Shown here in pieces: positions 13,949 to 42,558 of a stretch of 64,000 bases of DNA; positions within the stretch are counted from its first letter, which is position 1; each line of letters opens with the position of its first letter. The position numbers were made by a program, and so were the translations under genes. Origin of the DNA: an archaeon GW2011_AR19 (GTDB taxonomy: Archaea; Nanobdellota; Nanobdellia; Pacearchaeales; GW2011-AR1). The stretch is taken from NCBI GenBank assembly GCA_000806015.1, contig JWKY01000001.1:43569-107568 (forward strand). The letters run 5' to 3'. The notes under the pieces were generated by a model. That model was given only the letters and a program-made list of their open reading frames with translations. It was not told the origin of the DNA and searched no databases.

Positions 13949-13950
13949 AA

Positions 13951-15063: not shown

Positions 15064-15085
15064 TAATAGAGAAGATGAATAAAAA

Positions 15086-16828: not shown

Positions 16829-16829
16829 G

Positions 16830-17912: not shown

Positions 17913-18099
17913 AATCTTTTTAAAAGCAAATGATATTTAAAGATTTGTATAGATAGATACTATCAAATTAAAGTGATATAATTTTTTCTGACAAATCTGA
18001 TTAAATCCAGTAACATAAAAACCGAAAGATATAAATATACTTTTTTATTAAAAATTAAAATGTTTGAAAAGTATAACAAAACGATAAGTAAAAGATAAA

Positions 18100-19401: not shown

Positions 19402-19556
19402 TTACCGCAGGATATGAAAGAAATAAATGTAAACGCCGATTCAATGCATCAACTGAAGAGGATTGCTGAATGGAAAGATTGGTTTAGATTATAGATAACT
19501 GACTAAATTAAGTTACATCAAATAGCTAAAAAGATTGCTCAATATTAACTATTTCT

Positions 19557-20897: not shown

Positions 20898-20981
20898 TTT
20901 TTATTTTTTCCTTTTAATTTATTTTTTGTATAAATCTCATTAACAAAAGATTTATTAATTTTATTAAGATTAAATATACAC

Positions 20982-21941: not shown

Positions 21942-22015
21942 CTTTGATTAATTCCCTTATAGTTTAAAAACTTAAGTAGGATAAAAATTATAAATCTTCT
22001 TTTCCAGATTAGAAC

Positions 22016-22738: not shown

Positions 22739-22753
22739 ATTAGGATAATTTTT

Positions 22754-23557
22754 TCATATCGTCTGCTTGCCCATTAAAAAACCTTTCCAAAAACCAAAAA
22801 GATAGTAAAAATGGTCTGGAAAAGAACTCAATATATAAACTGGAAATAATTTTGTTTCTTTTTTATTAAATGGAAAAGAAAAGATTGTTGCAACTATTCC
22901 AAATATTGGAATCGCCTTTATTAAAAAAGAATGCCATCCGCGCATTTTCAAGCCATAAATTCTAAAAATCGCTCCGCCTCCGTTGGCATATTGACGAGTT
23001 TTTTTTAATCTTTTCATATAAGTTGTTGGATGATAGTGCAATATTCCTGCTTTTGGATAAGCTATTGCTCCTTTTTCTTTTATTTTCATATAAAGATCCA
23101 AATCTTCTCCCCCTGTTTTAAAAGTTTTTTCATCAAAATAATTAACTGATTTTAAAATATCTTTTCTATACGCCCCGCCCTTTCCGTCCAACAAAGAGGT
23201 AATAATTCCTTTTTCTTTTATATTAGCTGCTTTAGCAAATATACTTAAATTTTTCCAGATAAAATCTGGAAGGCGAATCTTAGAAACAGAAGCAATTACA
23301 TTTTTATTTTTGAAAGGTTCAACTAAATTTTTTAACCAAGATTCATTTGCAGGAACGCAATCCTGCGGCAGTTCAACAACAATATCGTATTTTGATTTTT
23401 TTATACCAAGATTTATCTGTTTTGCAAAACCCATATTTTCTTCTATTTCTAATATTTCAATTTTTCCTTTGAATTTTTGTTCTTTTACTGCTTGAATAAG
23501 TTTTTTCAACACATCCCTGTCTGGATTAAATATTGGGATGACGATTGAAACATTCAT
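22754..23557 (-). CDS. family 2 glycosyltransferase
   Basis: MNVSIVIPIFNPDRDVLKKLIQAVKEQKF...DIVVELPQD is a GT-A N-terminal signature. Confidence 0.75.
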   Translation of the reverse strand: MNVSIVIPIFNPDRDVLKKLIQAVKEQKFKGKIEILEIEENMGFAKQINLGIKKSKYDIVVELPQDCVPANESWLKNLVEPFKNKNVIASVSKIRLPDFIWKNLSIFAKAANIKEKGIITSLLDGKGGAYRKDILKSVNYFDEKTFKTGGEDLDLYMKIKEKGAIAYPKAGILHYHPTTYMKRLKKTRQYANGGGAIFRIYGLKMRGWHSFLIKAIPIFGIVATIFSFPFNKKETKLFPVYILSSFPDHFYYLFGFWKGFLMGKQTI

Positions 23558-23828
23558 TAATTTTTAATATTTTTATAGTTTAAATCTTTTCTGTAAGGAA
23601 AAGTTTTGTCAAAAAACTCCTGTTTTTTGTTCCCATTTAAGTCTTTTTCGTTTAAAAAAAGCTTACGCGAAAATCTCGTTAGAGATATCTTCAGCATAAA
23701 TCTTTTCTGGAAGTGATTATTTGTATTTATTAATTCTTCAAAATCATAGATTTTGATAATTTTTAGCTCGGTCTGCTTATTGAAAAAAATAAATTATAAT
23801 AAATAAAATTTGAATGTCCAAGTAGAAA

Positions 23829-24263
23829 CTATTTCATTAGATATTTCTCGATGAATTTTTTATGGGCAGAATGTATATTTTTCGGCGGTTTTTTGAAAAA
23901 TTTTATTTCATCTGCCTGCCAGCTCCCCTTGATTTTTCCGGATTTTCTTTTTACCAAAAAAGCCAAACTAATAGGATGCCCAAATACTTCTTTTTTTTGT
24001 GGAAATTCTATCGCCCCTAAAAGTTTAACGATTTTTACATTTAAGTTGATTTCTTCTTTGGCAGTTCTTTTTACAGCTTGTTTCAATGTTTCATTAAAGA
24101 GAATACTGCCCCCTGGAAAATGCCACATTCCTTTTGAAGGGGGAATTAATCTCTTCGTCAATAATACGCCGTCTTTTGTTTTTAGAATTATTTCAACGCA
24201 TAATCTCGGAACTTGGTTATAAATGCAATTAAATTTTTTTTGAGAGAGTTTTTTTGGAACCAT
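23829..24263 (-). CDS. NUDIX hydrolase
   Basis: Nudix box GGSILFNETLKQAVKRTAKEEINL. Confidence 0.7.
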   Translation of the reverse strand: MVPKKLSQKKFNCIYNQVPRLCVEIILKTKDGVLLTKRLIPPSKGMWHFPGGSILFNETLKQAVKRTAKEEINLNVKIVKLLGAIEFPQKKEVFGHPISLAFLVKRKSGKIKGSWQADEIKFFKKPPKNIHSAHKKFIEKYLMK

Positions 24264-24353
24264 GAAAATTTTTAGTAAAAGAAACTTTAAAAATGTTTTA
24301 TTTTGTTAACTCATTTTTATATTAACTTTTTTAAGAAATCGTTGCAAAGTCGT

Positions 24354-25286
24354 TTATTTTTTATAAAATTCTATTGTTCTTTTTATTCCATCTTCTAAAG
24401 AGGTCTTTGGGGTCCAACCTATTTTTTTCAAACCTGAATTATCACAGACAAAATCAACAATTCCAACATTTTTATGAAAATCCGGCGGGGTGATTACCTT
24501 AACTTTTGTATTTGGAATTTGTTCTCTTACAATATTTATTAATTCCCTGAATTTTGTGAATTCTCCTCTTCCAACATAGTATACTTTGTTTGTCTCTCCT
24601 TTTTCTGCAAGAGTCATGCAGGCATCTGCAACATCATCAACATAAATATAATCTCTGACAAAATCTCCATTATTATAAAGTTGAATTTCTTTGCCTTTCA
24701 CAGCTTGATTTATCATAAAATTAAATCCTGCCTTTTTTTTATTATTTCCATCTTCAAATGGACCAAAAACATTAGTAAATCTGGCAATTATTACATCCAA
24801 ATTAAAAACATTATGATAAATGCGGCAAAAATGTTCTGCAGCAAGTTTTGTAGCTGGATATAAACCCAGAGGATTGCAGGGAGAATCTGCATTAACAGGA
24901 AGTTTATCTGCATTGCCATTAACAAAAAATGTGCTCCCAAAAATAATTTTTGCTTTAGGATTATATTTTTTGCATGCTTCTAAAAGAGCAATTGTTCCAT
25001 TGCAGTTTATTTTTATATCTTTATAGGGTTTGTCTTCTTTAATAGCATAATTATCAACAGTGCCGGCTAAATGAAAAATATAATCTTTATTTTTTACATC
25101 ATCTTCATTTATTTTTCTTACATCTTTTATTATTAAATTAATTTTATTTTCAATATTAAAAATATTATTTTTTTTATTGTAAGATCTTGATAATATATAA
25201 ATATCGTTTTTACTTTCTAAATATTTTTTAGCTAAATGGCTTCCAATAAATCCCATTCCGCCGGTGATTAGAATTTTTTTATTCAT
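24354..25286 (-). CDS. NAD-dependent NDP-sugar epimerase/reductase (extended SDR)
   Basis: ILITGGMGFIGSHLAKKYL; YPATK catalytic pair; 310 aa. It lies directly downstream of the putative 3-dehydratase. Confidence 0.8.
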   Translation of the reverse strand: MNKKILITGGMGFIGSHLAKKYLESKNDIYILSRSYNKKNNIFNIENKINLIIKDVRKINEDDVKNKDYIFHLAGTVDNYAIKEDKPYKDIKINCNGTIALLEACKKYNPKAKIIFGSTFFVNGNADKLPVNADSPCNPLGLYPATKLAAEHFCRIYHNVFNLDVIIARFTNVFGPFEDGNNKKKAGFNFMINQAVKGKEIQLYNNGDFVRDYIYVDDVADACMTLAEKGETNKVYYVGRGEFTKFRELINIVREQIPNTKVKVITPPDFHKNVGIVDFVCDNSGLKKIGWTPKTSLEDGIKRTIEFYKK

Positions 25287-25287
25287 T

Positions 25288-26493
25288 TTATGATTTATAT
25301 TCTCCTAAAAATTTTTTTAATATATTATAATAATCTTTTTTTTGATTTTCAGGCATGCCCCAGCATGGAATGAAAAGTGATCTTTTTTCTATATCGTCGC
25401 CAACTGGAAAATTTCCATTATTGAGAGAGAGCCATTCTGCTCTTTCAAATGGTTTTTGTTTTGTAATATTCCCGCACATTAATGGTCTTACTTCAACTTT
25501 ATTTGCAGTGAGATATCGCGCAAAGCTTGATCTATCAAAAGAAGAACTTTCTTTAATAGTAAGAGGATATGAAAACCAGCTTGGGTCTGCTTTTGGATGA
25601 GTTTGGGGAAGATGAAATACTTCATATTCTGTGAATAATTCTGTCATTTCATTAAATTGTTTTTTTCTTTCTTCAATAAATTTAGGTAATTTAGAAATTT
25701 GTTTTAATCCAAATGATGCCTGCAAAGCAGTCATCTGGCTGTCTGTGCCTAACGTTTCATATGTATATCTCTTTAAAAATTCATCATCTGCAGGACGAAA
25801 ATCTCTACCCCAAAAAATTAGGCTTTTAAGAGTATCGCTTAATTTTTTATTGTTTGTTGCCACAGCTCCGCCAACCCCTCCAGAAGTAATATGATGAGAA
25901 GCATAAAAGCTGTATGCTGCTGCATCCCCATACGAGCCCACACATTTATTTTGATATTTACTTCCTAAAGTATCACAGCAATCTTCTAAAAGAAATCTTG
26001 TTTTTCCTAAAATTTTTAAAATTTTTTCTAAATCAGGAACATTTCCTAATAAATGCGGTAAAATCATTCCTCTTGTTTCCGGATATCTTTCTATTGCTGC
26101 AGACACTTGTTCTGAATCAGCGACATAAGTAGATGGTTTGGTTTCAATAAATATCGGGACTATTCCTAAATTAATTGCTGAGGAAATGCTTGTTGCAAAT
26201 GTAGTTACAGGATGAATTATTTTATCTCCAATTCTCCAGCGGCCATCATGTTTCAAAGCTAATAAAGCATTTTCTATTGCCGCTGAACCGCTATTTGTTA
26301 AATGCACATACGGAATTTCTAAGAATTTTGACATTTCTTTTTCAAGATTTTTATTTGGTTTTCCATATCCAAACCAATCATCCCGAAGCACTTCAGTTAA
26401 AGCTTTTCTTTCTTCTTCTCCCCACTGGACTCTATTAATTAGGTGCGGGTCTCCCATTTTTTCCCATTTTTTCCATCCTATTTTTTTATTCAT
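25288..26493 (-). CDS. DegT-family PLP/PMP enzyme with His replacing the Schiff-base Lys: putative NDP-hexose 3-dehydratase (ColD/E1-like)
   Basis: Family signatures LTNSGSAAIENALLALK. The region aligned to the aminotransferase SLHPLK is AYSFYASHHITSGGVGG, so the Lys position is His. Confidence 0.6.
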   Translation of the reverse strand: MNKKIGWKKWEKMGDPHLINRVQWGEEERKALTEVLRDDWFGYGKPNKNLEKEMSKFLEIPYVHLTNSGSAAIENALLALKHDGRWRIGDKIIHPVTTFATSISSAINLGIVPIFIETKPSTYVADSEQVSAAIERYPETRGMILPHLLGNVPDLEKILKILGKTRFLLEDCCDTLGSKYQNKCVGSYGDAAAYSFYASHHITSGGVGGAVATNNKKLSDTLKSLIFWGRDFRPADDEFLKRYTYETLGTDSQMTALQASFGLKQISKLPKFIEERKKQFNEMTELFTEYEVFHLPQTHPKADPSWFSYPLTIKESSSFDRSSFARYLTANKVEVRPLMCGNITKQKPFERAEWLSLNNGNFPVGDDIEKRSLFIPCWGMPENQKKDYYNILKKFLGEYKS

Positions 26494-26633
26494 TGAGGTT
26501 TATCCTAAATTTATTTTAAATAGTTTATGCTGATGGAAAGCATATTATTCAGGAGAAGTTTAAAATCTTCTGTCAAATAATCTTTGACTATCGTCGTAGA
26601 TTTGATTAATTATAAACCCCTTTAATATGTTTT

Positions 26634-27143
26634 ATGATAAATCTTCAAAACAATAATGCTTTTAAATTAACTAAAATTTGGGTGTTTATGAAAAAAGATA
26701 AGGCAACTAAGGAAAAAGTAGAAAGAATAATAAATGCGGTAAATCCTTACATTGATGCTCGTGGAAAAATAGAGAATTATCTTCTTCCTCAGACAATTAA
26801 TCTTTTAGCGACAATAACTTCAAAAAAAGGAAGCATAAGAGCAAACCACTATCATCCTGAACAAGAACAAATGTGTCTTGTTATTTCTGGAAGCTATGTA
26901 AGTGTTTACAAAGATTTAACCATTTCAAATAGTCAGATTAGACATCAAATTATTAAGGCAGGAGATTTATCAATAATGCCCCCAAATGTTGCGCATACCA
27001 TGATCTTTTTAGAAGATTCTGTTTTTCTCAATTTAGTAAATGGAAATAGAGACCATAATAAATTTGAAGAGCATACTATTAAATACGAATTAGTGAAGCC
27101 TTCTGAAATAGATGATTATCTTCACTTGTATTCAAACGAATAA
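26634..27143 (+). CDS. cupin-fold WxcM/FdtA-like sugar 3,4-ketoisomerase (possible start at 26688)
   Basis: DARGKIENYLLPQTINLLATITSKKGSIRANHYHPEQEQMCLVISGSY matches the FdtA/WxcM pattern D.RG.L...P..I.R......G..RG.H.H...EQ.......G. Confidence 0.55.
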   Translation: MINLQNNNAFKLTKIWVFMKKDKATKEKVERIINAVNPYIDARGKIENYLLPQTINLLATITSKKGSIRANHYHPEQEQMCLVISGSYVSVYKDLTISNSQIRHQIIKAGDLSIMPPNVAHTMIFLEDSVFLNLVNGNRDHNKFEEHTIKYELVKPSEIDDYLHLYSNE

Positions 27144-27156
27144 TTTTCTATAAAAA

Positions 27157-29466
27157 ATGGAAATCGGATTTGATAACAGCACCATAAAGGAAGACATAAA
27201 CAACATTGTTAGAGATTTAGGAAATCTTTGTAAAAAGTTTGAAGGCAAAACTATACTTATAACCGGAGGCGCAGGATTTTTAGGAAAATATCTTGTTTGG
27301 TTTTTAATTTTTTTGAATAAAAATATTTTAGAAAGACCGTGTAAAATAATAATTTTGGACAACTTTATTACAGGAATTAAAGGCAGTCTTGAAGAAAATG
27401 AAAATACAATAATTATAGAACAAGATATTTCTAAACCTTTTAAAATAGAAGGAAATATAGATTATATACTGCATGCAGCAAGCATCGCTGCCCCTTTATT
27501 CTATAATAAATACAGATTAGAAACAATTGATGTAGGTTTTATAGGAACAAAGAATCTTTTAGAATTAGCAAAAGAAAAAAAAATTAAAAGTTTTTTATTT
27601 TTTAGCACAAGCGAAATTTACGGAAATCCAGATTCTAAATCTATTCCTACTCCGGAAACATATTTTGGAAATGTTTCATGTACGGGTCCAAGAGCAGCTT
27701 ATGATGAACCAAAGAGAATTGGTGAAACTTTATGCATGACTTATGCAGACATGTACAATCTTCCAATAAAAATAGTCCGCCCCTTTAATGTTTTTGGTCC
27801 TGGAATGAGATTTGATGACGGAAGAGGCGCAATAAACTTTGTTGTTTCCGCATTAAGAGGGGAAAAAATTCCTGTTTATGGCGATGGAAGAAATACAAGA
27901 ACCTGGACATATATTTCAGATGCGATCACAGCATTTTTCCAAGTTCTTTTATCAGATCATAATGGTGAAGCATTTAATGTAGGGTCAGATGAACAAGAAA
28001 TAGAAATGAGGCATCTCGCGCAGCTCGTTGCAGGATTAGTAAAAAATCAAAACATAGAAATTCATAATCTTGAAGGCCCAAATGAAGCTTATTCTAAGGC
28101 TGATGTAAATAGAAGATGTCCTGATTTAACAAAAATTAGAACAATGATTGGATTTATTCCGCGAGTTACTCTTGTTTCTGGATTAAAAAGATTTATAGAA
28201 TGGACAGAAGAAGCATTAAAAGAGCAGCAAAATCTTACGGGTTTTCAATTAAAATGCAGAATTTGTGAAAACCCTGAATTAGAAAAGGTTGTCTCTTTAG
28301 GAAAATCTCCTTTAGCAAATAATCTTCTTTCTATTGGCGATTTAAATAAAGATGAAGAATTATATCCTTTAGAAATAATGCACTGCAGCAAATGTAATTT
28401 ATGCCAGCTTTCATATGTCGTTCCTCCAGAAAAAATGTTCAAAAATTATCTTTATGTTACATCAACAACAGATTATTTTAAAAAACATTTCGGAGAATTG
28501 GCGGATAAAATAAAAAAAGAATTTAACTTAACAAATAATTCATTGGTAGTGGATATAGGGAGTAATGATGGTTTATTATTGAAAAAATTTAAGGAAAATG
28601 GAGTTAGAGTTGTAGGAATTGAATCAGCAGAGAATATTTGTAACCTTGCTAGAAGTGATGGAGTAGATACTTTAAGCGGATTTTTTAATGAGGATATTGT
28701 CGAAGAAATAGTAAAAATGAAAGGAAAAGCAGACGTCGTTACTGCAAATAATGTTTTTGCCCATGTGGGGAATATAAAAGGATTTATAAAAAATGTAAAA
28801 AATTTATTAAAAGATGATGGAATTTTTGTTATAGAAGTACAATATCTTCTTGATATGATACAAACTTTAACGTTTGATAATATCTACCACGAGCATCTCT
28901 CTTATTTCAGCGTTTTATCTTTAAATGAATTTTTCAAAAGACAAGATATGGAAATTTTTAAAGTTGAACATATTGATAGTCATGGAGGATCAATAAGGAT
29001 ATTTATCCAAAAAGCGAAAAAACATTTAAAGGATAACTCTGCAGAAGAATTTATTAGAAAAGAAATGTTTTTTGGTTTAGACAGCTCAAAAACTTATCAA
29101 GAATTTGGAAATAAATTAAACGGAATAAGAGAAAAAATAAGAGATTTTATAATAAAAACTAAAAAAGATGGGAAAAAAATTGTTGGTTATGGCGCGCCGG
29201 CAAAAGCAACAACTCTTCTAAATTATTATGATATAGATAATAAACATCTCGATTTTATTGTTGAAGACAATATTCTAAAACAAGGAAAAATTGTCCCGGG
29301 AGTAAGAATTCCAATTAAAAAAAAGGAAGTTCTTGATCAAATAAATCCAGATTATATTCTTATTTTAGCATGGAATTTTGCAGATGAAATAATGAAAAAA
29401 AATAATATCTATAAAGAGAAAGGCGCAAAGTTTGTCATTATTTCTCCAGAATTAAAAATTGTTTAG
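27157..29466 (+). CDS. fusion protein: N-terminal NDP-sugar epimerase/dehydratase (SDR) + C-terminal sugar C-methyltransferase (TylC3-like)
   Basis: N-terminal ILITGGAGFLGKYLVWFL Rossmann with YDEPK. From ~aa 365 there is a Zn-binding CRICENPELEKVVSLGKSPLANNLL...MHCSKCNLCQLSYVVPPEKMFKNYLYVTS (Methyltransf_13-like). It is followed by the SAM motif VVDIGSNDGLLL and a C-terminal C-methyltransferase domain. Confidence 0.7.
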   Translation: MEIGFDNSTIKEDINNIVRDLGNLCKKFEGKTILITGGAGFLGKYLVWFLIFLNKNILERPCKIIILDNFITGIKGSLEENENTIIIEQDISKPFKIEGNIDYILHAASIAAPLFYNKYRLETIDVGFIGTKNLLELAKEKKIKSFLFFSTSEIYGNPDSKSIPTPETYFGNVSCTGPRAAYDEPKRIGETLCMTYADMYNLPIKIVRPFNVFGPGMRFDDGRGAINFVVSALRGEKIPVYGDGRNTRTWTYISDAITAFFQVLLSDHNGEAFNVGSDEQEIEMRHLAQLVAGLVKNQNIEIHNLEGPNEAYSKADVNRRCPDLTKIRTMIGFIPRVTLVSGLKRFIEWTEEALKEQQNLTGFQLKCRICENPELEKVVSLGKSPLANNLLSIGDLNKDEELYPLEIMHCSKCNLCQLSYVVPPEKMFKNYLYVTSTTDYFKKHFGELADKIKKEFNLTNNSLVVDIGSNDGLLLKKFKENGVRVVGIESAENICNLARSDGVDTLSGFFNEDIVEEIVKMKGKADVVTANNVFAHVGNIKGFIKNVKNLLKDDGIFVIEVQYLLDMIQTLTFDNIYHEHLSYFSVLSLNEFFKRQDMEIFKVEHIDSHGGSIRIFIQKAKKHLKDNSAEEFIRKEMFFGLDSSKTYQEFGNKLNGIREKIRDFIIKTKKDGKKIVGYGAPAKATTLLNYYDIDNKHLDFIVEDNILKQGKIVPGVRIPIKKKEVLDQINPDYILILAWNFADEIMKKNNIYKEKGAKFVIISPELKIV

Positions 29467-29474
29467 TTTCTTTT

Positions 29475-30398
29475 TTGAAAATTTTAAAAATGAAAAAATT
29501 AAAAGTAGCAATTCTCGGCGCAGGAAATATTGGAAAGTTTCACGTTAGAGAATTCAAAAATGCTGGTTGTGATGTTGTTGCTATTTTAGGAAGTTCAGCA
29601 AAAAGTGTAAAAAAAGCTGCTGAAGAACTTTATAATATGTTTCGTGTTGAAGTTAGACAATATCATAATTTAGTTAGTTTACTGGAAAACGAAAAGATAG
29701 ATGCAGTGAGTATTTGCACTCCCCCTGAGCTGCATTCTAAACAAATAAAACAATGTTTAGAATATAGTCTGCACATATTATGTGAAAAACCCTTGGTATT
29801 TGATTCAAAATATGAAAATTACAAAATAGCGCAAAACCTTATTAAAACATCAAAAGAGAGGAAAAAAGTTTTGACAGTAAATACGCAGTGGCCATCAATC
29901 TTAGATAAACTTAATTTGAAAGAGAAAAAAATTAATAACTTTACAATGTATATGGAGCCCCCAGGATTCGGAGAAACAACAATAATTTCTGAAGCAGTTC
30001 CCCATATGAATAGCATACTTATTAGACTGGCTAATAGCGGGGAAGCGACTGATTTTAAATTTTATAAATCTAAAGAAGATATAAAAATAAAATTTAACTA
30101 TGAAAACAATAATAATATTTGTAAAGTTATTTATCACATTAAACCAAAACAAGAAAGGCCCAGAATTATTAATTTTTCTATAAATGATAAAGAATACAAA
30201 AGAGAAGTAACGAGAGAGAATCGGCATTTTATTGTAAGTAAGCGTATGAAACTGGAGATAGAAGATCCTTTGAAAGTTTCTATCAAAACATTTGTGGGGG
30301 CCATTATGGGCAGCGAACCATTAATATCCGAAACAGAACTTTTGGAAAATATAAAATTGCAGGACATTATATTAAAAAAACTTTCTTCACAAAAATGA
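29475..30398 (+). CDS. Gfo/Idh/MocA-family NAD(P)-dependent sugar oxidoreductase
   Basis: VAILGAGNIGKFHVREF...IDAVSICTPPELHSKQIKQCLEYSLHILCEKPL. Confidence 0.75.
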   Translation: MKILKMKKLKVAILGAGNIGKFHVREFKNAGCDVVAILGSSAKSVKKAAEELYNMFRVEVRQYHNLVSLLENEKIDAVSICTPPELHSKQIKQCLEYSLHILCEKPLVFDSKYENYKIAQNLIKTSKERKKVLTVNTQWPSILDKLNLKEKKINNFTMYMEPPGFGETTIISEAVPHMNSILIRLANSGEATDFKFYKSKEDIKIKFNYENNNNICKVIYHIKPKQERPRIINFSINDKEYKREVTRENRHFIVSKRMKLEIEDPLKVSIKTFVGAIMGSEPLISETELLENIKLQDIILKKLSSQK

Positions 30399-30411: not shown

Positions 30412-31434
30412 TTAAAATTTGTTTTTCATGCTAAGATCTTCATTTAAAAACATTCTGCTTTCACCATTTTTAATTCTTTTTCTATATTTCATGCAATAAT
30501 AAAGAGCCTGCCATAAATATTTGGTTTTTAGAAAATTTTCTTTTTTTGGTTTTATTATAACTCTTAGTATGTTCAAAAAATTAATCCAAAATAATTCCCA
30601 GATTAGTTTTAAAGTTCCACCAAGATTGTAAAAATATCTGTAATAAAAATTAAAATGATCTTCATGATTTACAAAAATTCTTTTTTTATCAGGATATCTT
30701 TCAATATCTGAATAATGGTGATATGCTCTCACTCTTTTTGGAATCACCAAACTCCCGTTTCCATACTTAGTATAGACATGATAACCTAAATCAATATCCT
30801 CTGAAACATCATATCCAATTCTTTCTGGAATCTTGTAATTATCAAAAACTTTATCCCTATAACACATTATAAAACCAGATATCCACTGACAATCCCTAAT
30901 ATCTTTTTCAATTTTAGGCGTTGAAGTATTTCCATATGGTCCTAAAATTTTAAATTTATGATTATCTTTATGGGGTAAAAGAAAAAAACCTAAAATAAAA
31001 TTAAGAAGTTTAAATTTTAAAGAATTATATTTTTTGAAATCAAATTTATTGTAATCATTAATATCTACTGCGCCAACACCCATAATTTTTGGATTAGAAT
31101 TAAATTCTTTTAGAACCTCTTTAATAAATCCTTGGATTAATTCGGCATCATCATCTATTAAAATAATTATTTTGAATTTATTTTTAATTTTTATCAAAGC
31201 GTCATTTAATGCATTGTTTTTACTTGGTATTTTGTAATGTTTATATTCTATGAATTTGTTTTTTTTAAGATATATTTGCGCCATATTTTTTGTTTTTTCA
31301 TTTTTGCTTTGATCAAGAATAATAAGTTTTGCTGGATGTTCCTTTTGCAGAATAATGCTTTTTAAAAGCTTTTCTAAATCTTCCGAGCGATTATAAGTTG
31401 GGATAAGGATGCATACATCTTTTTCTTTTAACAT
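30412..31434 (-). CDS. family 2 glycosyltransferase
   Basis: VCILIPTYNRSEDLEKLLKSIILQKEH...IILDQS...IILIDDDAE (GT-A with DxD). Confidence 0.7.
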   Translation of the reverse strand: MLKEKDVCILIPTYNRSEDLEKLLKSIILQKEHPAKLIILDQSKNEKTKNMAQIYLKKNKFIEYKHYKIPSKNNALNDALIKIKNKFKIIILIDDDAELIQGFIKEVLKEFNSNPKIMGVGAVDINDYNKFDFKKYNSLKFKLLNFILGFFLLPHKDNHKFKILGPYGNTSTPKIEKDIRDCQWISGFIMCYRDKVFDNYKIPERIGYDVSEDIDLGYHVYTKYGNGSLVIPKRVRAYHHYSDIERYPDKKRIFVNHEDHFNFYYRYFYNLGGTLKLIWELFWINFLNILRVIIKPKKENFLKTKYLWQALYYCMKYRKRIKNGESRMFLNEDLSMKNKF

Positions 31435-31570: not shown

Positions 31571-33772
31571 TTAAATACAAGCCCCATTTGAACATCCCTT
31601 TGGACAGGTATACCATTCTGAAACTGTAGTCGCATAGGTCACTCCAGATACAACATTAGAAACACAAGAATATTCTGCTAATGAGCCAGTGACGCTACTG
31701 CAGAAGTCCCAATTATCTGCAGAAATAGGAGTAGATGAACCAATTGGACCATAATAACTATTTCCCTTTACATTATAATTTTTTCCTCCATCAGAATCTG
31801 TGCACCAAGTTCCTTGATTAGTTTGATTAGTTGTTGTGTTATTTCCTGTTTGATTTCCAAGAGTTTGGTTATAAGTATAATTTCCCGGTAAAGTAATATT
31901 TGTCTGATTTAAAGTCAAATTCCCAGTTTGATTTCCTGGAAGAGTAAAATTTGTTATATTCAAAATTACGCCGGTCAAATTAGTTTGATTTTTAGGAGGA
32001 AGAGTATAATTAGTTTGATTTCCAAGAAGTCCGGAAATTTCAATTGGTTTAACCTTGACTACCAAAAAATTCCACCAGGGTTTTTCTGAACTGATAATCT
32101 TACCAGTTTCGCTGTCAATTTGCGCTTCTAATTTTAATTTAATTTTAAACAAACCTATTAATCTGCCGTCTTTATCTTCTTTAGCAATATAAACTGCTCT
32201 TAGATTGTCTCCTTCTCCAACTTCTTTTAATTCAATATTAAATCCTTTGCTTTTTAATTTTTCCAATGCTATTTCAGATGCTTCATCTGGCATAATTTTT
32301 ATTTCCCGTTCATTTCCATTAGATAATTGGGCTTTAAGTTTTATTTCGTCGTCTTCAAATTTTTCTAATATTTTTAGCTCAGATTTAATTTCATTTTCAT
32401 TAATTATAATCTTTCTCTCAAGCGTTGCGCTTCCATCTGCTTTAACTTCAGTTTTAATTTCAATTTTAACTTCTTCCCCATTTTTATTTATAAAAGTCCT
32501 TTTTTCTCTAACTACGCTTGAACCATCTTCATTAATTTCTGCATTAATTTTAATCTTAATTTCATTTCCTTTTTTATCTGTAATTTTTTTAACTTCTTCT
32601 ATGAATTTTATATTCTCTTTAATTTCTTCTTTAATGCTGATTGTTTCTTCAAAAACTCCTAATGAAGAACTGCTCCCACTGCTTCCTCCTCCACCTGATA
32701 CTGTTCCTGCAGAAGCAGTTGTTGTGCTTGTTGTAGAAATAGTTGGAATTGTAGTTGTGGTGGATGAAGTTGTTGCATTTGTTTGATTAGTTGTTGTATT
32801 ATTCCTAGTTTGATTTGTTGTAGTTGAAACGCAAGCCCCATCAGAACATCCATTTGGACAAGTATAAATTTCAGCATCTGGTCCGCAAAAAAGTTCTACT
32901 ACAGCTGTTCCATCGCCATTGCAATAGTCTGAATAAGTGTAAGAACCATAAGTCCTAGCTCCTTTTACATTATAGTTTTTTCCCCCGTCGCTGTCTGTGC
33001 ATGTTGTTTGATTTGTCGTCGTAGTTGAAACACAGGCGCCATTAGAGCATCCATTTGGACAAGAATAATATTCTGAAGATATTCCATTAACAATAGCAAA
33101 GCCGTTAACAATGCAAAAATATTCTGCTACACTTTGACCATTGCAGTAATCTACATGATTTGGAGAATTTGAAGAGATAGTATTTCCTTTTATATAATAA
33201 TCCTTTCCCCCGTCGCTATCAGAACAAGAAATTCCTGTTTGATTAGTTGTATTTGTTGCAGCAGAAACACAAGCCCCATTTGAGCATCCGTTTGGACAAG
33301 TGTAAGTTTCTCCGCTTTGTTGTTTATCAGCAGTGCAGAAATATTCTACTAATGAATTTGAGCTGCTGCACAAATCTGTAACATCTATAGAAGATGTTGG
33401 CGAATTCGCAACAACATTTCCTTTAGTTGAATATGCTTTTCCTCCGTCGCTATCTGCGCAAGTAAAGGTGTTTGAAACACAAGCGCCAGCAACACAAGTT
33501 TCACCTGATGAGCAGGAGATTACAGAACTAAACTCTAAACAAGAATCAGAATCATAATTCCCGCAAGTTTTATAGCCGTCGCCAGAACATTGTTTTGCCC
33601 CGTTAGACGAGCAATCATCAGAACAGGTCAGATTTGTTGTATCATTTTCAGTAGTTTTTCCAGTTAATTTTTTCCAAAAATCTCCAAACCATGTTGCAGA
33701 CACAAATCCTATTGACATAATTAAAGTAATTAATATTAAAGAAATTAAAACAATTACTAAACTCTTTTTCAT
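31571..33772 (-). CDS. secreted modular surface protein: signal peptide, four Cys-rich ~65-aa modules, Thr-rich linker, beta-rich K/E repeats, dense N-glycosylation sequon cassette
   Basis: N-terminal MKKSLVIVLISLILITLIMSIGFVSA is a signal peptide. Four modules follow the pattern C.DSDGGK.Y..KG...C...E(Y/L).C...Y(T/S)CP(N/K)GCS(N/D)GAC. A TTTNQT...SGGGGSSGSSSS linker is present. About 16 N-x-T sequons lie in aa 583-655 (nt 31808..32026). Confidence 0.7.
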   Translation of the reverse strand: MKKSLVIVLISLILITLIMSIGFVSATWFGDFWKKLTGKTTENDTTNLTCSDDCSSNGAKQCSGDGYKTCGNYDSDSCLEFSSVISCSSGETCVAGACVSNTFTCADSDGGKAYSTKGNVVANSPTSSIDVTDLCSSSNSLVEYFCTADKQQSGETYTCPNGCSNGACVSAATNTTNQTGISCSDSDGGKDYYIKGNTISSNSPNHVDYCNGQSVAEYFCIVNGFAIVNGISSEYYSCPNGCSNGACVSTTTTNQTTCTDSDGGKNYNVKGARTYGSYTYSDYCNGDGTAVVELFCGPDAEIYTCPNGCSDGACVSTTTNQTRNNTTTNQTNATTSSTTTTIPTISTTSTTTASAGTVSGGGGSSGSSSSLGVFEETISIKEEIKENIKFIEEVKKITDKKGNEIKIKINAEINEDGSSVVREKRTFINKNGEEVKIEIKTEVKADGSATLERKIIINENEIKSELKILEKFEDDEIKLKAQLSNGNEREIKIMPDEASEIALEKLKSKGFNIELKEVGEGDNLRAVYIAKEDKDGRLIGLFKIKLKLEAQIDSETGKIISSEKPWWNFLVVKVKPIEISGLLGNQTNYTLPPKNQTNLTGVILNITNFTLPGNQTGNLTLNQTNITLPGNYTYNQTLGNQTGNNTTTNQTNQGTWCTDSDGGKNYNVKGNSYYGPIGSSTPISADNWDFCSSVTGSLAEYSCVSNVVSGVTYATTVSEWYTCPKGCSNGACI

Positions 33773-33866
33773 TATTTTATATATTAATTAGGGTTTATTA
33801 ATTTATTTGTGTTGATTTCTATTTTAGTTTCTAAATCTTTATAAGTCTTTTAAATATATTTCTTAT

Positions 33867-35072
33867 ATGAAAATACTTGAAGTATGCCCATATTCAGCAG
33901 GCATTTGCGGAGTTTGGACAAGAGTTTTGGAAGAATCTAAAAGATTAAGTAAACGGGGTTTTGAAATAAAAATTTTTTCTTCAAATGCTGTTAAAGGTTC
34001 AAATGAAATTGCTCCTTCACACGAAAAATTAGGCCCCAAAGGGGTCTCCTCTGGAGTAAAAATAGAAATTTTAAGATTTCCTTTTAAAAAATTAGGCGGT
34101 GAAAGTTTTATGTCTTGGGATTTTGAAAAAGAAGCGTTGAATTATTCGCCAGACATCATAATTGCTCACAATTATAGACATTTGCATACAACAAAATGTC
34201 TTAAAATTGCAGAAAAATTAAAAGGAGAAAACAAAAAATGCAAAGTTTTTCTTGTAACTCATGCTCCCTTTGAAAGAAAATTAACAAGAACTTTTTTGCA
34301 AAACTTAATTGTTAAAATTTATGATTTATTTATTGGAAGAAAAACAATTAATAAGTTTGATAAAATTTTGGCAATAACCAAATGGGAGATGCCTTATTTG
34401 CTAAAATTAGGAGCAAAAAAAGAAAAAATTATTTATATTCCTAATGGCATTTCTCCTGAATTTTTTAGTCTGAAAAAGCAAGCAAAAAAAGAACAAAAAA
34501 CAGGAAATTTTTTGACAAACTCGCCCAAGCGTGGTCGAGTTAAAGAAGAAAATAAGATATTATTTTTAGGCCGTATTTCTCCGATTAAAAATTTGGAAGT
34601 ATTAATTAAAGCAATGGATTTCGTTAAAAACAAGAAGATTTTATTGGAGATTGTGGGCCCCCCAGAAAAAAATTATTTTATAAAATTAAAAAATTTAATT
34701 AAAAAACTTGGACTAAATGATAAAATAAAATTTTCTTTACCAATCTATAATCTAAAAGAAAAGATAGCTAAAATAGATTCTTGCCAAATATTTGTCTTGC
34801 CAAGTAAAATGGAAGGCATGCCCCAATCTTTAATAGAAGTAATGGCAAGAGAAAAAATTGTAATTGGAAGCAATAGCTTGGCAATAAGGGATTTAATCGA
34901 GAATGGAGAAAATGGATTTTTATTTGAATTTAATGACCCAAAAGATTTAGCAAAAAAAATTGATGAAGCGCTTTCACAAAAAAATTTAGAAATAAAAAAA
35001 CAGGCAAGAAAAAGTGTTGAACATTTTTCCTGGAACAAAGTAATTAAAAAAATAGTGGGAGTTATACAATGA
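33867..35072 (+). CDS. family 4 (GT-B) glycosyltransferase
   Basis: C-terminal EX7E region EGMPQSLIEVMAREKIVIGSN...NGENGFLF. Confidence 0.75.
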   Translation: MKILEVCPYSAGICGVWTRVLEESKRLSKRGFEIKIFSSNAVKGSNEIAPSHEKLGPKGVSSGVKIEILRFPFKKLGGESFMSWDFEKEALNYSPDIIIAHNYRHLHTTKCLKIAEKLKGENKKCKVFLVTHAPFERKLTRTFLQNLIVKIYDLFIGRKTINKFDKILAITKWEMPYLLKLGAKKEKIIYIPNGISPEFFSLKKQAKKEQKTGNFLTNSPKRGRVKEENKILFLGRISPIKNLEVLIKAMDFVKNKKILLEIVGPPEKNYFIKLKNLIKKLGLNDKIKFSLPIYNLKEKIAKIDSCQIFVLPSKMEGMPQSLIEVMAREKIVIGSNSLAIRDLIENGENGFLFEFNDPKDLAKKIDEALSQKNLEIKKQARKSVEHFSWNKVIKKIVGVIQ

Positions 35073-38721: not shown

Positions 38722-39966
38722 TTATATAATTTCCAATTTTGGAATTGGAACAATTAATCTTGCCCCCCATTCTTTTGTATATTCTAATCTTTTTTTTATA
38801 GAATCTTTAAAATTCCAGGGCAAAATCAATATATTGTCTGGTTTTGTCTCTCTTAATTTCTCTTCTCCAACAACAGGAATATGGCTTTCTGGAAGATATT
38901 TTCCCTGTTTAAACGGGGTTAAATCTGCGACATAACTTATAAGGTCTTTTCTTATACCGCAATAATTTAATAGAGTATTTCCTTTTGCAGCCGCCCCATA
39001 ACCGACAACTGTTTTTCCGTTTTCTTTTTGTTCAATAAGAAATTTTAACAAATCATATTTAACTTTATCAACTCGCGGCGTGAATCCATTATAATAATCA
39101 AGGTTCATCATTCCAGAATCAATTTCTTTTTTTTCAAGTAAATTTACTCTCTCTGAAATTCCATGAGTATTATCATTTTCATGCTTAGCGTAAATTCTAA
39201 GCGAACCTCCATGAGTTGGAATTTCTTCAACATCAAATAATTTTAATTTGTGAGAGTTAAATATTTTTTTGACCACGCTAAATGAAAAGTAAGAATAATG
39301 CTCCTGATAAATTGTATCAAACTGATTTTGTTCTACAATATTTTTTAAATGAGGAAATTCCATAGTTAAAACTCCTTTATTTCCTAAGATTTTTTCTAAC
39401 CCTTTAACAAAATCATTTACATTTGGAACATGAGCAAGGACATTATTTCCAATTAACAAATCAGCCTTAGTTCCTAATTTGACAAGCTCTTCTGCAAGTG
39501 TAATTCCAAAAAATTTCTCAATTGTTGGGATTCCATTTTTAATTGCGATTTTTGCAGTGCTTGACGAAGGTTCTATACCTAAAACAGGAATTTCTTTTTC
39601 TTTAAAATATTGCAATAAATAACCATCATTTGAAGCAATTTCAATAACTTGTGATTTATTATTTAAGTTTAAATGAGGAATTATAAAATCTGCGTATTTT
39701 TTGCAATGTTCTAACCAGGGTTGTGAAACAGAAGAAAAATAAACATAATCGTCCCCAAAAATTTCATTATGCGCTCTGTGTTCGTCTACTTGCACAAGAA
39801 AACATTTATCGCATACAAAAACTCTTAGAGGATACGCAATTTCTGGTTCATTTAATTGTTCTTCTGTTCTAAATGAATTTGTTGGAGGGGCGTTTCCCAA
39901 TTCTATAAAAATATTATCAAGAGGGCTATTGCAAAATCTGCACCCCATTTTATTCCCTTGCACCAT
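38722..39966 (-). CDS. sugar C-methyltransferase (TylC3/NovU-like: Zn-binding domain + SAM MTase + C-MT C-terminal domain)
   Basis: MGCRFCNSPLDNIFIELGNAPPTNSF...VFVCDKCFLVQVDEHRAHNEIFGDDYVYFSSVS (Methyltransf_13 pattern). SAM motif VIEIASNDGYLLQYF. Confidence 0.7.
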   Translation of the reverse strand: MVQGNKMGCRFCNSPLDNIFIELGNAPPTNSFRTEEQLNEPEIAYPLRVFVCDKCFLVQVDEHRAHNEIFGDDYVYFSSVSQPWLEHCKKYADFIIPHLNLNNKSQVIEIASNDGYLLQYFKEKEIPVLGIEPSSSTAKIAIKNGIPTIEKFFGITLAEELVKLGTKADLLIGNNVLAHVPNVNDFVKGLEKILGNKGVLTMEFPHLKNIVEQNQFDTIYQEHYSYFSFSVVKKIFNSHKLKLFDVEEIPTHGGSLRIYAKHENDNTHGISERVNLLEKKEIDSGMMNLDYYNGFTPRVDKVKYDLLKFLIEQKENGKTVVGYGAAAKGNTLLNYCGIRKDLISYVADLTPFKQGKYLPESHIPVVGEEKLRETKPDNILILPWNFKDSIKKRLEYTKEWGARLIVPIPKLEII

Positions 39967-40063
39967 TTTTTATTTTAAACAATATTCTTTCTGATAAAAA
40001 TTAGTTTTTAAGCATTATCGTGATTTATCTAAATCTTTAAAAAGATATCAATAAAGTAATTTT

Positions 40064-40603
40064 ATGGAAATACAATCTACAGAGTTTAAAGGATTATTTT
40101 TAATAGCGCCAAATGTATATTCAGATAGCAGGGGTTATTTTTTTGAAAAATATAATAAAAAAATATTCGCAGAAAAGAGCATTACTCAAGATTTTTTGCA
40201 GGAAAGTGAATCTTTTTCTTATAAAAATACCCTTAGAGGATTGCATTTTCAAAAAAAACCTTTTGAACAAGGAAAACTTGTTTCTGTTGTTCAGGGAAGC
40301 ATAAAAGATGTTGTTGTGGATATAAGAAAAGATTCTCAGAATTATGGAAAATGGAAAGCATTTCTTCTTGATTCTAAAGAAAAAAAATCTCTTTTTGTTC
40401 CAGAAGGATTTGCCCACGGATTTCTTGCTTTAGAGGATTCAATAGTGTCTTATAGAATAACTGCACTTTATAATAAAGAATCAGAGTCGGGCATAATTTG
40501 GAATGATTCATTTCTGAATATAAATTGGGGGATATCTAATCCTATTTTATCTGAGAAAGATAAAAAACTCCCAATTTTCAATGACCTATCAAATCTAATT
40601 TAA
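40064..40603 (+). CDS. rmlC: dTDP-4-dehydrorhamnose 3,5-epimerase family (RmlC)
   Basis: DSRGYFFE...LRGLHFQKKPFEQGKLVSVVQGSIKDVVVDIRKDSQNYGKW...FVPEGFAHGF...GIIWND is a full RmlC signature. Confidence 0.85.
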   Translation: MEIQSTEFKGLFLIAPNVYSDSRGYFFEKYNKKIFAEKSITQDFLQESESFSYKNTLRGLHFQKKPFEQGKLVSVVQGSIKDVVVDIRKDSQNYGKWKAFLLDSKEKKSLFVPEGFAHGFLALEDSIVSYRITALYNKESESGIIWNDSFLNINWGISNPILSEKDKKLPIFNDLSNLI

Positions 40604-40607
40604 TAAC

Positions 40608-41423
40608 TCAAACTAAATTTTTCTTATAATCTATTAGACATGCTCTTACCGCATTGTGGATGTCAGGCATTATAATTCCCTCTTTAGATAATTTTGAAGT
40701 ATCAAGAATTCCATCTGCCTTTTTATTTAATAATAATTTGTCCAATTCTTTATTAGAGATAATTTCAAATTTATGTGTCGGGTCTACAATTTCTTTATAC
40801 ATTTCCATTATTTCAACAAGTGAAATCAAACCCGGATTTGTTGCATTATATATTCCAATTTTTCTTTTTTCAATTAAACTTTCAAGCGCATTAAGTATAT
40901 CCGGCACAACTGTAATAGAATTTTTAACATCAGCGATTTGATTATATCCCTTTAGTTTATCTATTAAATTTTTTTCATGGGATCGGCAATCTAAAGGCAT
41001 ATTTATTCTTAATTGCAAACATGGAAATTCTTTTAGTATTTTTTCAGAAATTATTTTTGTTCTTGCATGAGTTTGCAAATAAAAGTTAGGTTCGTCCTCT
41101 TCATTAAATTCTTTATTCTTTCCTGTATAAATTCCTCCAGTCCCAAAATGCACAAAATAAATTCCTTTTTGTGAGCATGTAATCCCAAGATTTGCGGCAG
41201 CAACTACATTTGACATAAATGTTTCTTCCTTATGGGTTTCACACCAGTCAATATTTGGTTTTCCGGTTTTTCCAACCGCGTTAATAACAATGTCTGGTTT
41301 TGTTTGTTCAAGTGTTTGCTCAAGAGCATATCTATCAAGAACATCTATCTCCGATAAATAATAATTAAATTTATCAGCTATTCTTTTGCCTATAAATCCT
41401 GCTCCAAATACTAAACCTTTCAT
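40608..41423 (-). CDS. rmlD: dTDP-4-dehydrorhamnose reductase-like (RmlD family)
   Basis: MKGLVFGAGFIGKRI...KPDIVINAVGKTGKPNIDWCETHKEETFMSNVVAAANL...YFVHFGTGGIYTG follows the RmlD pattern (PD.VINAAA.T.VD..E......N..G...L). Confidence 0.7.
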   Translation of the reverse strand: MKGLVFGAGFIGKRIADKFNYYLSEIDVLDRYALEQTLEQTKPDIVINAVGKTGKPNIDWCETHKEETFMSNVVAAANLGITCSQKGIYFVHFGTGGIYTGKNKEFNEEDEPNFYLQTHARTKIISEKILKEFPCLQLRINMPLDCRSHEKNLIDKLKGYNQIADVKNSITVVPDILNALESLIEKRKIGIYNATNPGLISLVEIMEMYKEIVDPTHKFEIISNKELDKLLLNKKADGILDTSKLSKEGIIMPDIHNAVRACLIDYKKNLV

Positions 41424-41537
41424 GGATTTTGTCAGTTTTTCTTGTTTAAGAATTTAACTATTTTATAATTTTAAAATGACATATGTCCTTGATTATAATT
41501 TCATTAAAAAATAATCTAATCCAAACAATTTTTGTAT

Positions 41538-42557
41538 TTAATCTTTCTTATTTAATATTCTAACTGCCAAAAATGAATATATATAATTTAGAGTTATCGC
41601 AAATGTTAAAATCGGATGAACAAGCCAGGAAAATTCTTTTTGTTTAATAGCCATTTTTATTCCATCAAAAAGTCTTGGAAAAATTATAAGATTATAAAAA
41701 ACATTTTTAACAAATTTAAGATTCTGTTTGAAATTATTTTTTTCTAAACTTATCCAATAAAAGTTTCTATGCTGAATATTCTCTCTTAAATAATACCTAA
41801 CATAAAATCCTCTTTTTTTAACAAATTCAAAAAATTCTGAAGAAGTTTTATGAAATACCTTCAAATCCAATGGGATAGCAACATTATATTTGTGTTTGTT
41901 TAATGCCATTCTATAAAAATTATCTATATCTTGTGTATATCCTTTGTTGTCAAAAAAGTCTTTTTTCCTTATTAAAAATCCATTATCTCCCCCATAACAA
42001 AAATCATTTTTACTTATTGTATAAATAAAATATTTTTCTTTTTTATTAAATTCAAATTTTTTTGGATGAAGTATGACTTCTGATTTTAGGGAATAGGGTA
42101 TAGCAAAAGGATCTTCAATCCCTGTTGCTCCGAGATATCTGTCTATGGTAGAGCCCCCTTCAGGAATAAGTGTAAGTGACTGAACACAAGAAAGGGTTTT
42201 ATTCTTCATAAGAATTTCAGCCATTGATTTTAACCAAAACTTCTGGATAAGAAGATTATCTTGGTCAATCATTAAAATAAATTCTCCAGTTGCTTTTTTA
42301 GAAGCGATATCTGCTCCTCCACCGCGTCCAACTTTATATTTTTTAGGATTATCTATTAATTTTATTATTTTAGGGTATTTTTTTTGATAATTTTTAATAA
42401 TGCTTAAAGTTTTATCTGTGCTTCCTCCATCGGCAACTATCATCTCAAGTTTGTCCTTGGGATAAGTTTGCTCGAAAAATAGTTTTAAACAATCTTCAAT
42501 AGTTTTCTCGCCGTTATATGTCACTAAAACTACGCTTATTTTAGGATATTTTTCCAT
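41538..42557 (-). CDS. family 2 glycosyltransferase
   Basis: ISVVLVTYNGEKTIEDCLKLFFEQTYPKDKLEMIVADGGSTDKT. Confidence 0.8.
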   Translation of the reverse strand: MEKYPKISVVLVTYNGEKTIEDCLKLFFEQTYPKDKLEMIVADGGSTDKTLSIIKNYQKKYPKIIKLIDNPKKYKVGRGGGADIASKKATGEFILMIDQDNLLIQKFWLKSMAEILMKNKTLSCVQSLTLIPEGGSTIDRYLGATGIEDPFAIPYSLKSEVILHPKKFEFNKKEKYFIYTISKNDFCYGGDNGFLIRKKDFFDNKGYTQDIDNFYRMALNKHKYNVAIPLDLKVFHKTSSEFFEFVKKRGFYVRYYLRENIQHRNFYWISLEKNNFKQNLKFVKNVFYNLIIFPRLFDGIKMAIKQKEFSWLVHPILTFAITLNYIYSFLAVRILNKKD

Positions 42558-42558
42558 T

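Follow-up and report, generated by a model that had tools for sequence, protein, structure and literature searches.

A secreted cysteine-rich protein with a dense N-x-T sequon cassette as a candidate AglB substrate in a glycosylation island of a DPANN archaeon

Which exported protein might receive the glycan made by an archaeal glycosylation island, and what would so many glycans do on it? This question is raised by an open reading frame (ORF) at 31571..33772 on the minus strand (ATG start at 33772) of a 64-kb stretch of DNA from archaeon GW2011_AR19, referred to below as the window. The ORF encodes 733 amino acids (aa), lies among glycosyltransferase (GT) genes, and carries a cassette of closely spaced N-x-T sequons. 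An initial annotation of the same DNA described these features and took the product to be the dedicated acceptor of the local glycan pathway, either an S-layer or another cell-surface protein. Its observation is confirmed here, and its interpretation is partly supported. We consider it fairly probable that a DPANN archaeon of the Pacearchaeota/Nanoarchaeota type exports this protein as a surface or secreted glycoprotein, with disordered linkers that serve as substrates of the oligosaccharyltransferase AglB and a cassette that forms a glycan-coated spacer. It is a very good candidate AglB substrate, since it is an exported modular protein with non-random, evolutionarily maintained sequons, encoded in a genuine glycosylation island and linked to the same GT genes in five genomes.

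Sequon phase and placement

Both the 733-aa product and its predicted signal peptide, as claimed earlier, were recovered, the latter with a layout of MKK, 21 hydrophobic residues and VSA|T. Downstream of it are an 8-Cys domain, three copies of a 6-Cys module (referred to as CxDSDGG), a Thr-rich linker, a conserved core, the sequon cassette, and a fourth CxDSDGG module (Table 1). With sequons defined as N-x-[ST], where x is not P, the protein contains 26, all of them N-x-T and none N-x-S, with the Asn at aa 43, 47, 174, 177, 254, 320, 324, 325, 329, and 332 and at 16 positions between 585 and 649. The cassette that holds the latter 16 had been placed at aa 583-655 (nt 31808..32026); the count of 16 stands, and the true span is shifted by one or two residues. 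About ten further sequons had been assigned to the Thr-rich linker, of which five are indeed found at its start, while the other five follow the signal peptide or lie in two short inter-module linkers.

These numbers are far from what the composition of the protein would give. Shuffling the residues of the cassette 20,000 times gives 3.9±1.6 sequons (maximum 11) instead of 16, and 16 of its 17 Asn lie within sequons, with Thr at +2; it contains no Ser, and its Thr residues are in the N-x-T phase. Over the whole protein, N-x-T is found 26 times compared to 7.6±2.5 in shuffled sequences (maximum 18), and N-x-S is absent where 7.2 are expected (P=3e-4), although Ser makes up 11% of the residues; N-x-[ST] as a whole is more moderately enriched (26 vs. 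14.8±3.2 from its own composition). The sequon density is 3.55 per 100 aa in the target, 1.76 in the next-highest ORF of the window, and 0.47 in the other 59 ORFs, to which all density comparisons within the window refer and in which N-x-S is more frequent than N-x-T (57 vs. 29). Within the window, the earlier concern that the sequons may reflect a density common to many proteins, or a mere bias in composition, is thus answered by a target value far above that of the other ORFs and by shuffles far below the observed counts.

The placement of the sequons is as uneven as their phase. In an AlphaFold2 model built on a 55-sequence alignment, the Cys modules score 80-93 in the predicted local distance difference test (pLDDT) and the core ~90 or more, compared to ~30 in both the Thr-rich linker and the cassette, and ~23% of the protein is predicted to be disordered. 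All 26 sequons are inside segments with pLDDT<50 (165 residues), while the folded domains have none in 539 residues containing 39 Asn (7.1±2.3 by within-domain shuffling, P≈3e-4). Such enrichment in linkers and avoidance in folded parts is the pattern expected of real targets of an oligosaccharyltransferase whose acceptor sites must be flexible and exposed. The cassette itself, with a local density of 22 sequons per 100 aa, consists of irregular N-x-T-N-x-T-L-P-G/P units (sequon spacing 3,7,3,7,3,6,4,4,3,6,4,5,4,1,4) and has no secondary structure in the model. Whether the cassette forms an extended stalk had been suggested as a point for structure prediction; in the model, it is a disordered segment that may act as a spacer. 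As Tandem Repeats Finder detected just a two-copy 9-nt repeat under the cassette, and no substantial DNA tandem repeat, the cassette is not a product of recent DNA slippage.

The cassette has also been maintained among relatives. Homologs of the protein all come from DPANN archaea (labeled Pacearchaeota, Nanoarchaeota/Nanoarchaeia, Woesearchaeota, Diapherotrites, and Altiarchaeota), and the same overall plan is present in P0002, P0004, P0005, P0007, and P0008, with 41-52% BLAST identity. These five, together with P0121 and P0124, keep a cassette at the same position, with units that resemble N-x-T-N-I-T-L-P-(P/G/A) and a total of 7 to 14 or more sequons, in which N and T are fixed and x may be Q, L, I, V, N, M, Y, F, W, or T. 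Close strains differ in whole cassette units, as seen between P0124 and the window. Besides these orthologs, distant members of the family that shares the core domain carry different sequon-dense tails right after their PWWxFL end, such as the NETENSTTNVTA repeats of P0196 (15 sequons in 72 aa), the "PGN[EQT]T" repeats of P0164, P0172, and P0174, and others in P0134, P0211, P0253, and P0265. These tails are strongly biased toward N-x-T (N-x-T:N-x-S of 8:0, 9:0, 10:0, and 14:1), and sequons elsewhere in the family are mixed. As unlike tails occur at one position, dense N-x-T arrays appear to have arisen there repeatedly. A homology search with the cassette alone returned a single fragment, nearly identical to it, and the distribution of such cassettes is thus beyond the reach of sequence searches. 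Sequons were counted instead in the 297 related proteins fetched, among which the cassette of the window (16 in 72 aa) is the densest locally, followed by that of P0196.

Based on these features, we propose the following mechanism. After Sec export and probable cleavage behind VSA26, the disulfide-rich units (the 8-Cys domain, the four CxDSDGG modules, and a core formed by a β-meander and a PepSY-like unit) would be arranged as beads on a string, in which the strings are the intrinsically disordered linkers carrying all 26 N-x-T sequons. AglB would move the lipid-linked glycan of the island onto the exposed Asn of these linkers. Carrying as many as 16 glycans, frequently at adjacent N-x-T-N-x-T pairs, the cassette would become a stiff, hydrated, and protease-resistant "bottle-brush" spacer, which may keep the C-terminal CxDSDGG module apart from the PepSY-like core. 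That N-x-T alone is used plausibly fits an efficient occupancy of closely spaced sites: as summarized in PMC6761772, citing Shrimal & Gilmore 2013, STT3A can glycosylate both of two adjacent N-x-T sites, while adjacent N-x-S sites are incompletely modified. An export layout according to sequence rules, sequons in flexible linkers, and the presence of AglB, an AglH-like GT, and a flippase in the window were all found for this candidate substrate.

Several points weigh against this proposal. Evidence that adjacent sites favor N-x-T comes from eukaryotic STT3A, and from no archaeal AglB. The low pLDDT of the cassette may come in part from the shallow alignment there (~6 sequences). No C-terminal transmembrane (TM) segment, sorting signal, or other cell anchor was found in the hydrophobicity profile of the protein, in which only the N-terminal segment is hydrophobic, and this bears on whether the protein stays on the surface or is released. 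Further, the cassette is dispensable for the core function of the family, as shown by P0003 (Candidatus Pacearchaeota, 62% identity), which ends directly after PWWNFLVIK and whose downstream DNA matches that of the window; the cassette and the C-terminal module therefore represent a clean insertion or deletion, i.e., an accessory part.

Archaeal surface proteins with heavy N-glycosylation are already known, as are glycosylated spacers, and the current understanding is not overturned by our proposal; what is new here is an unusually dense, linker-only spacer of predicted N-linked sites on a protein of uncharacterised modules. To our knowledge, N-glycosylation has not been studied experimentally in DPANN archaea, and this protein, with 16 sequons in 72 residues and many of them adjacent, may serve as a natural substrate of compact size on which a DPANN AglB could be tested. 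It also suggests a design rule (sequons in linkers only, and N-x-T only where they are crowded) that is checkable across archaeal surface proteomes. A bolder view, which we regard as speculative and rather doubtful, is that dense N-x-T arrays are an N-linked counterpart of mucins, evolved repeatedly in DPANN archaea on the PWWxFL family of ~1,500 clusters; in the window, such an array would act as a glycan brush presenting a lectin-like CxDSDGG module of a new fold, co-inherited with the glycan genes and functioning in host attachment.

Artefact, repeat fold, S-layer, or dedicated acceptor

Incidental, unmodified sequons could in principle accumulate in an Asn/Thr-rich, low-complexity linker of a genome with 29% guanine-cytosine (GC) content, in which case the cassette would be a compositional artefact. 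The DNA is indeed rich in adenine and thymine (GC 0.27-0.33), as are the codons for Asn (AAT) and Thr (ACT/ACA), the linkers are of low complexity, and the whole-protein enrichment of N-x-[ST] is moderate. However, the phasing of the cassette, the absence of N-x-S in a protein with ample Ser, the sequon depletion in folded domains, the conservation of N and T with a variable x across orthologs, and the independent origin of unrelated N-x-T tails in distant family members all argue against such an origin, which we consider very improbable. A structured repeat, such as an Asn-ladder β-solenoid or a fold similar to leucine-rich repeats (LRRs) with N-x-T serving in folding, appears hardly credible: the recurrent N-x-T-N-I-T-L-P unit with its Leu, Ile, and Pro does resemble solenoid motifs, but the cassette is modeled with very low confidence and without secondary structure, its sequons are irregularly spaced, the number of units differs among close relatives, the ~10-residue units are too short for LRRs, and distant relatives use different sequon repeats at the same place. 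We also did not adopt the classification of the cassette as a mucin-type tandem-repeat domain rich in Pro, Thr, and Ser (PTS), given its lack of Ser, its N-x-T-phased Thr, and the lack of a DNA tandem repeat, although it may work alike.

The two remaining alternatives concern the whole protein. In bacteria, S-layer glycosylation (slg) clusters adjoin the S-layer structural gene, and the protein of the window may likewise be an S-layer lattice protein, with the island as its S-layer glycosylation cluster. The signal peptide, the many sequons, the conserved linkage to GT genes, and the occurrence of the CxDSDGG module in other DPANN proteins with Pfam S_layer_C would fit such a role, and, as in slg clusters, a presumed acceptor gene is located amid glycan-synthesis genes in an arrangement conserved in relatives. 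Here, however, the system is archaeal and N-linked via AglB, and the protein is a candidate acceptor whose identity as an S-layer protein is not supported. It has no S-layer domain and, in Pfam, NCBIfam, and PDB sequences, no match to a known S-layer family (e.g., PF05123/PF05124, SlaA/SlaB, or haloarchaeal csg), no C-terminal TM, PGF-CTERM/lipid or sorting signal (a partner stalk protein may exist), and none of the Ig-like or β-sandwich arrays of the proposed DPANN S-layer candidates; nearly a quarter of it is predicted to be disordered, and its folded units are small disulfide knots. Further, the number and order of modules and the C-terminal part vary among close relatives, which is unusual for a lattice protein. 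The C-terminal module of the window, with the "TNQTNQGTW" junction included, is 96% identical to module 2 of P0002 (aa 184-259), and the C-terminal modules of other orthologs resemble module 1 of the window; such identities across positions indicate that modules have changed places, and such plasticity typifies proteins that interact or lie at the surface rather than those that build lattices. We thus consider an S-layer role quite unlikely, and of the earlier proposal of an S-layer or cell-surface protein we retain an exported modular protein linked to GTs. That the protein is instead the dedicated, i.e., principal or only, acceptor of the island glycan, a proteoglycan-like carrier encoded together with its own pathway, also seems unlikely. 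No other protein of the window is predicted to be exported, its local sequon density is the highest among the 297 related proteins, and its divergent pairing with the GT4 and GT9/GT2 genes is conserved in five loci. However, AglB enzymes are general and act on any accessible sequon, P0003 retains the GT neighborhood without a cassette, and secreted DPANN proteins are commonly sequon-rich (see also bioRxiv 10.1101/2023.10.27.564410); the word "dedicated" in the initial annotation is therefore not upheld.

Returning to our preferred reading of an exported glycoprotein with AglB-modified linkers, its sequon load can be compared with that of other surface proteins. The density had been described as far above that of S-layer proteins, which is true locally; over the whole protein, it is 3.5 per 100 aa, compared to ~2.2 in Sulfolobus acidocaldarius SlaA (31 sites; PMC2948927, PMC6098224) and ~4 in the pectin-lyase-like proteins of Nanobdella (36-52 sites in 908-1320 aa; bioRxiv 10.1101/2023.10.27.564410). 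The S-layer protein of M. voltae has two sites (PMC2948927; PMC6098224). In the core family, the median is 1.85 and the maximum 7.5 per 100 aa, and other proteins with CxDSDGG modules reach 6.2. The whole-protein sequon density is thus ordinary for DPANN surface proteins, and only the local density is extreme.

Similar to SlaA, the protein is an exported, sequon-rich archaeal protein and a presumed AglB substrate, with a density of the same order. Unlike SlaA-type S-layer glycoproteins, to which it has no homology, it lacks an S-layer domain, Ig-like folds, and an anchor, and its sequons are confined to disordered linkers instead of being spread over folded domains. Another comparison is with the O-glycosylated, Thr-rich stalk that haloarchaeal S-layer glycoproteins possess and with the PTS domains of eukaryotic mucins, which, like the cassette as proposed here, are disordered, repeat-like, and densely glycosylatable spacers of varying copy number between folded parts; in the cassette, however, the predicted linkage is N- instead of O-, Ser is absent, and Thr is in the sequon phase. 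[quoted passage not shown] In contrast to these proteins, which have Ig-like, pectin-lyase-like, or lectin-like folds and, in several cases, C-terminal TM helices, the protein of the window consists of CxDSDGG knots and a PepSY-like core without a TM anchor. According to the same 2023 preprint, no DPANN S-layer protein had been determined (bioRxiv 10.1101/2023.10.27.564410).

Table 1. Features of the target protein and of the surrounding island (positions refer to the window)
Feature	Position	Strand	Evidence or remarks
Whole CDS, 733 aa + stop; secreted modular Cys-rich protein	31571..33772	-	ORF; 99%-identical P0001, orthologs P0002-P0012 in DPANN metagenomes/metagenome-assembled genomes
Predicted Sec-type signal peptide, aa 1-26 (MKK, 21-residue h-region, VSA|T)	33695..33772	-	sole hydrophobic segment; AlphaFold2 helix 2-21
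Aromatic amphipathic segment, aa 27-49 (TWFGDFWKKLTGKTTE), then sequons N43, N47	33626..33694	-	conservation; AlphaFold2 helix 28-37, low pLDDT
N-terminal 8-Cys domain, aa 50-99	33476..33625	-	Cys positions; pLDDT 69-85
CxDSDGG 6-Cys module 1, aa 105-168	33269..33460	-	
CxDSDGG module 2, aa 183-247; linker with N174, N177 before it	33032..33226	-	Cys pattern, AlphaFold2
CxDSDGG module 3, aa 258-314; linker with N254 before it	32831..33001	-	Cys pattern, AlphaFold2
Thr/Ser/Gly-rich disordered linker, aa 315-373, 5 sequons (N320, 324, 325, 329, 332)	32654..32830	-	pLDDT 26-45
Conserved core, aa 374-573	32054..32653	-	pLDDT ~90 or more; best-conserved region in the ortholog alignment
Sequon cassette, aa 585-656, 16 N-x-T in 72 aa	31805..32020	-	sequon count; pLDDT ~30
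C-terminal CxDSDGG module 4, long variant, aa 657-733	31574..31804	-	pLDDT 66-92
GT4-family glycosyltransferase (Glycos_transf_1)	33867..35072	+	divergent partner of the target
GT9+GT2 fusion, 628 aa	35069..36955	+	beside the ortholog in L001 and L004; separate genes in L002
PMT_2/PMT-family GT-C membrane protein, 555 aa	37001..38668	+	3 kb from the target; equivalent in L002
AglB (STT3-type oligosaccharyltransferase), 917 aa	46442..49195	-	PF02516/PF21436; TIGR04154 E=7.8e-30; WWDYGYW
AglH-like transferase (PF00953)	49231..50220	.	Pfam
Divergent intergenic region, 94 bp, TATA-like blocks	33773..33866	.	aligned across 5 loci

Conserved units and their families

The whole target gave no significant match in Pfam, NCBIfam, or PDB sequences, and its full model had no Foldseek match in PDB at E<=1e-3. 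It is the only window protein that combines an N-terminal signal-like segment with a large non-membrane ectodomain. The MKK, 21 hydrophobic residues, and VSA|T layout recurs in all orthologs and in the small proteins of the core family, and suggests Sec export and cleavage after VSA26 rather than a signal-anchor. A class-III (pilin-type) signal was not adopted, as the N-termini of the family, in which positions -3/-1 are occupied by small residues, resemble normal Sec signals. The following aromatic segment has the motif WFGDFWKKxTGKTTEN, in which W28, D31, K35, T37, G38, T41, and N43 are invariant in an alignment of 10 orthologs, so that the sequon Asn at N43 is unchanged in all ten.

The target contains 32 Cys in an even, module-by-module pattern, and its C-terminus is itself a Cys module that ends in ...CSNGACI. 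The 8-Cys domain has no Pfam match, and is found again downstream of the core in P0004 and P0007. The CxDSDGG module (57-65 residues in copies 1-3) follows the pattern "CxDSDGG…E.YC…C..GC..GAC", and likewise has no relative in Pfam and no significant match to a solved structure. The module occurs 315 times in the 120 best matches, which are proteins that join it to CARDB, laminin-G, PEGA, or dockerin domains and in several cases to S_layer_C. Besides the six Cys, D3, D5, D29, and E39 are invariant, and these acidic residues may hint at a metal (Ca2+) site. CxDSDGG modules are likely binding units, as they are shuffled between orthologs and recur in surface proteins of DPANN archaea by the hundreds. 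Our literature search returned nothing relevant on "DSDGG" or on Pacearchaeota cysteine-rich surface proteins.

The core consists of a Lys/Glu-rich antiparallel β-meander (~375-482), a PepSY-like α/β subdomain (~488-563), and PWWNFL (565-570). A search of 1.84 billion representative sequences for this domain identified 1,497 representative clusters with E<=1e-3, of which 875 reach E<=1e-10. Most members are small (180-400 aa) signal-peptide proteins with the core domain at the C-terminus, and they nearly always end at KKPWWxFLASGI or PWWAFLAxExEE; the C-terminal PWWxFL motif could be a sorting, anchoring, or interaction signal. The target itself is below the cut-off for Pfam PepSY (PF03413; 12.3 bits vs. 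24, E=0.21). However, 12 of 55 family members match PF03413 at E<=0.01 (best 8.3e-8), by which the second half of the core can be taken as a divergent PepSY-like unit; its predicted helix and four strands have a topology compatible with PepSY, and one relative is named "PepSY domain-containing protein" by NCBI. Unlike the PepSY proteins known as M4 protease propeptides and YpeB, which it resembles at aa ~488-563, the unit in the target is preceded by the long β-meander, ends in PWWxFL, which is usually the protein C-terminus, and has no evident protease or TM partner. The 6-Cys module and the PepSY-like "PWWxFL" core are thus exposed as two widespread, unannotated surface building blocks of DPANN archaea, and both are candidates for the host-interaction machinery of DPANN episymbionts.

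Antisense to the Lys/Glu-rich core is a 193-aa ORF with a TTG start (32205..32786, plus strand), whose translation is rich in Ser, Leu, and Phe. We regard it as almost certainly a shadow ORF that arises from the Lys/Glu-rich coding strand, and not as a gene.

The glycosylation island and its neighborhood

The location of the gene among GTs and near aglB/aglH was correctly described earlier: GT genes lie on both sides of the target (a GT2 gene at 30412..31434 and the divergent GT4-family gene), AglB begins 12.7 kb away, and an AglH-like transferase gene lies beside it (Table 1). Altogether, the window holds more than eight GTs in addition to sugar-modifying enzymes. Downstream of the GT4-family gene is a fusion of GT9 and GT2; GT9 enzymes (heptosyltransferase-like) are mostly known from the synthesis of the lipopolysaccharide core in bacteria. 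The PMT_2-family protein encoded next could O-glycosylate the Thr/Ser-rich linker (aa 315-373) or serve another lipid-linked transfer. Beyond it are genes for C-methyltransferases, RmlC/RmlD-like enzymes, three GT2 proteins, a methyltransferase, and a Wzx-like flippase, followed by AglB.

Enzymes for sugar tailoring are encoded at 12239..30398 and 38722..43491, and include two B12-binding radical S-adenosylmethionine enzymes, two TylC3/NovU-type C-methyltransferases (one of them as part of a 769-aa fusion with an epimerase/dehydratase), a carbamoyltransferase, and two DegT-type aminotransferases, as well as a cupin, a GFO/IDH/MocA oxidoreductase, and RmlC/RmlD-like enzymes. Such a set suggests that the island glycan may contain a branched, methylated, possibly carbamoylated amino-deoxysugar.

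Synteny was compared between the window and four related loci, L001 (with P0004), L002 (P0003), L003 (P0008; cut by the contig end), and L004 (P0007). In all five, with protein identities of 41-62%, the ortholog is divergently paired with the same GT4-family gene (truncated in L003), which is followed in related loci by the GT9/GT2 fusion or its split version; the island order in L002 is near-identical to that in the window. The TATA-like blocks in the intergenic region between the divergent genes probably act as promoters. In the related loci, the ortholog has the highest or second-highest sequon density, and its neighbors average 0.3-0.8 per 100 aa. Directly downstream of P0004, L001 also encodes a 163-aa signal-peptide protein (12273..12764, minus strand) with 7 sequons (4.3 per 100 aa), indicating that other exported proteins near the island are sequon-rich as well.

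The codon-adaptation index, calculated against the ribosomal-protein genes of the window, fails to separate even ribosomal proteins, and thus allows no inference on the expression of the target. Rfam and tRNA scans of the window returned no matches. Farther from the island, at 54994..55501, 58675..59108, and 59341..59577, inspection by eye points to small ORF pairs that resemble toxin-antitoxin modules (an AbrB/SpoVT-like with a RelE/ParE-like ORF, and another RelE-like ORF, encoded by the minus strand) and to a DUF433-like ORF. These small ORFs are inserted between apparent ribosomal-protein genes and a SecY-like gene (56996..58387), for which the TM profile, judged by eye, was the basis of assignment.

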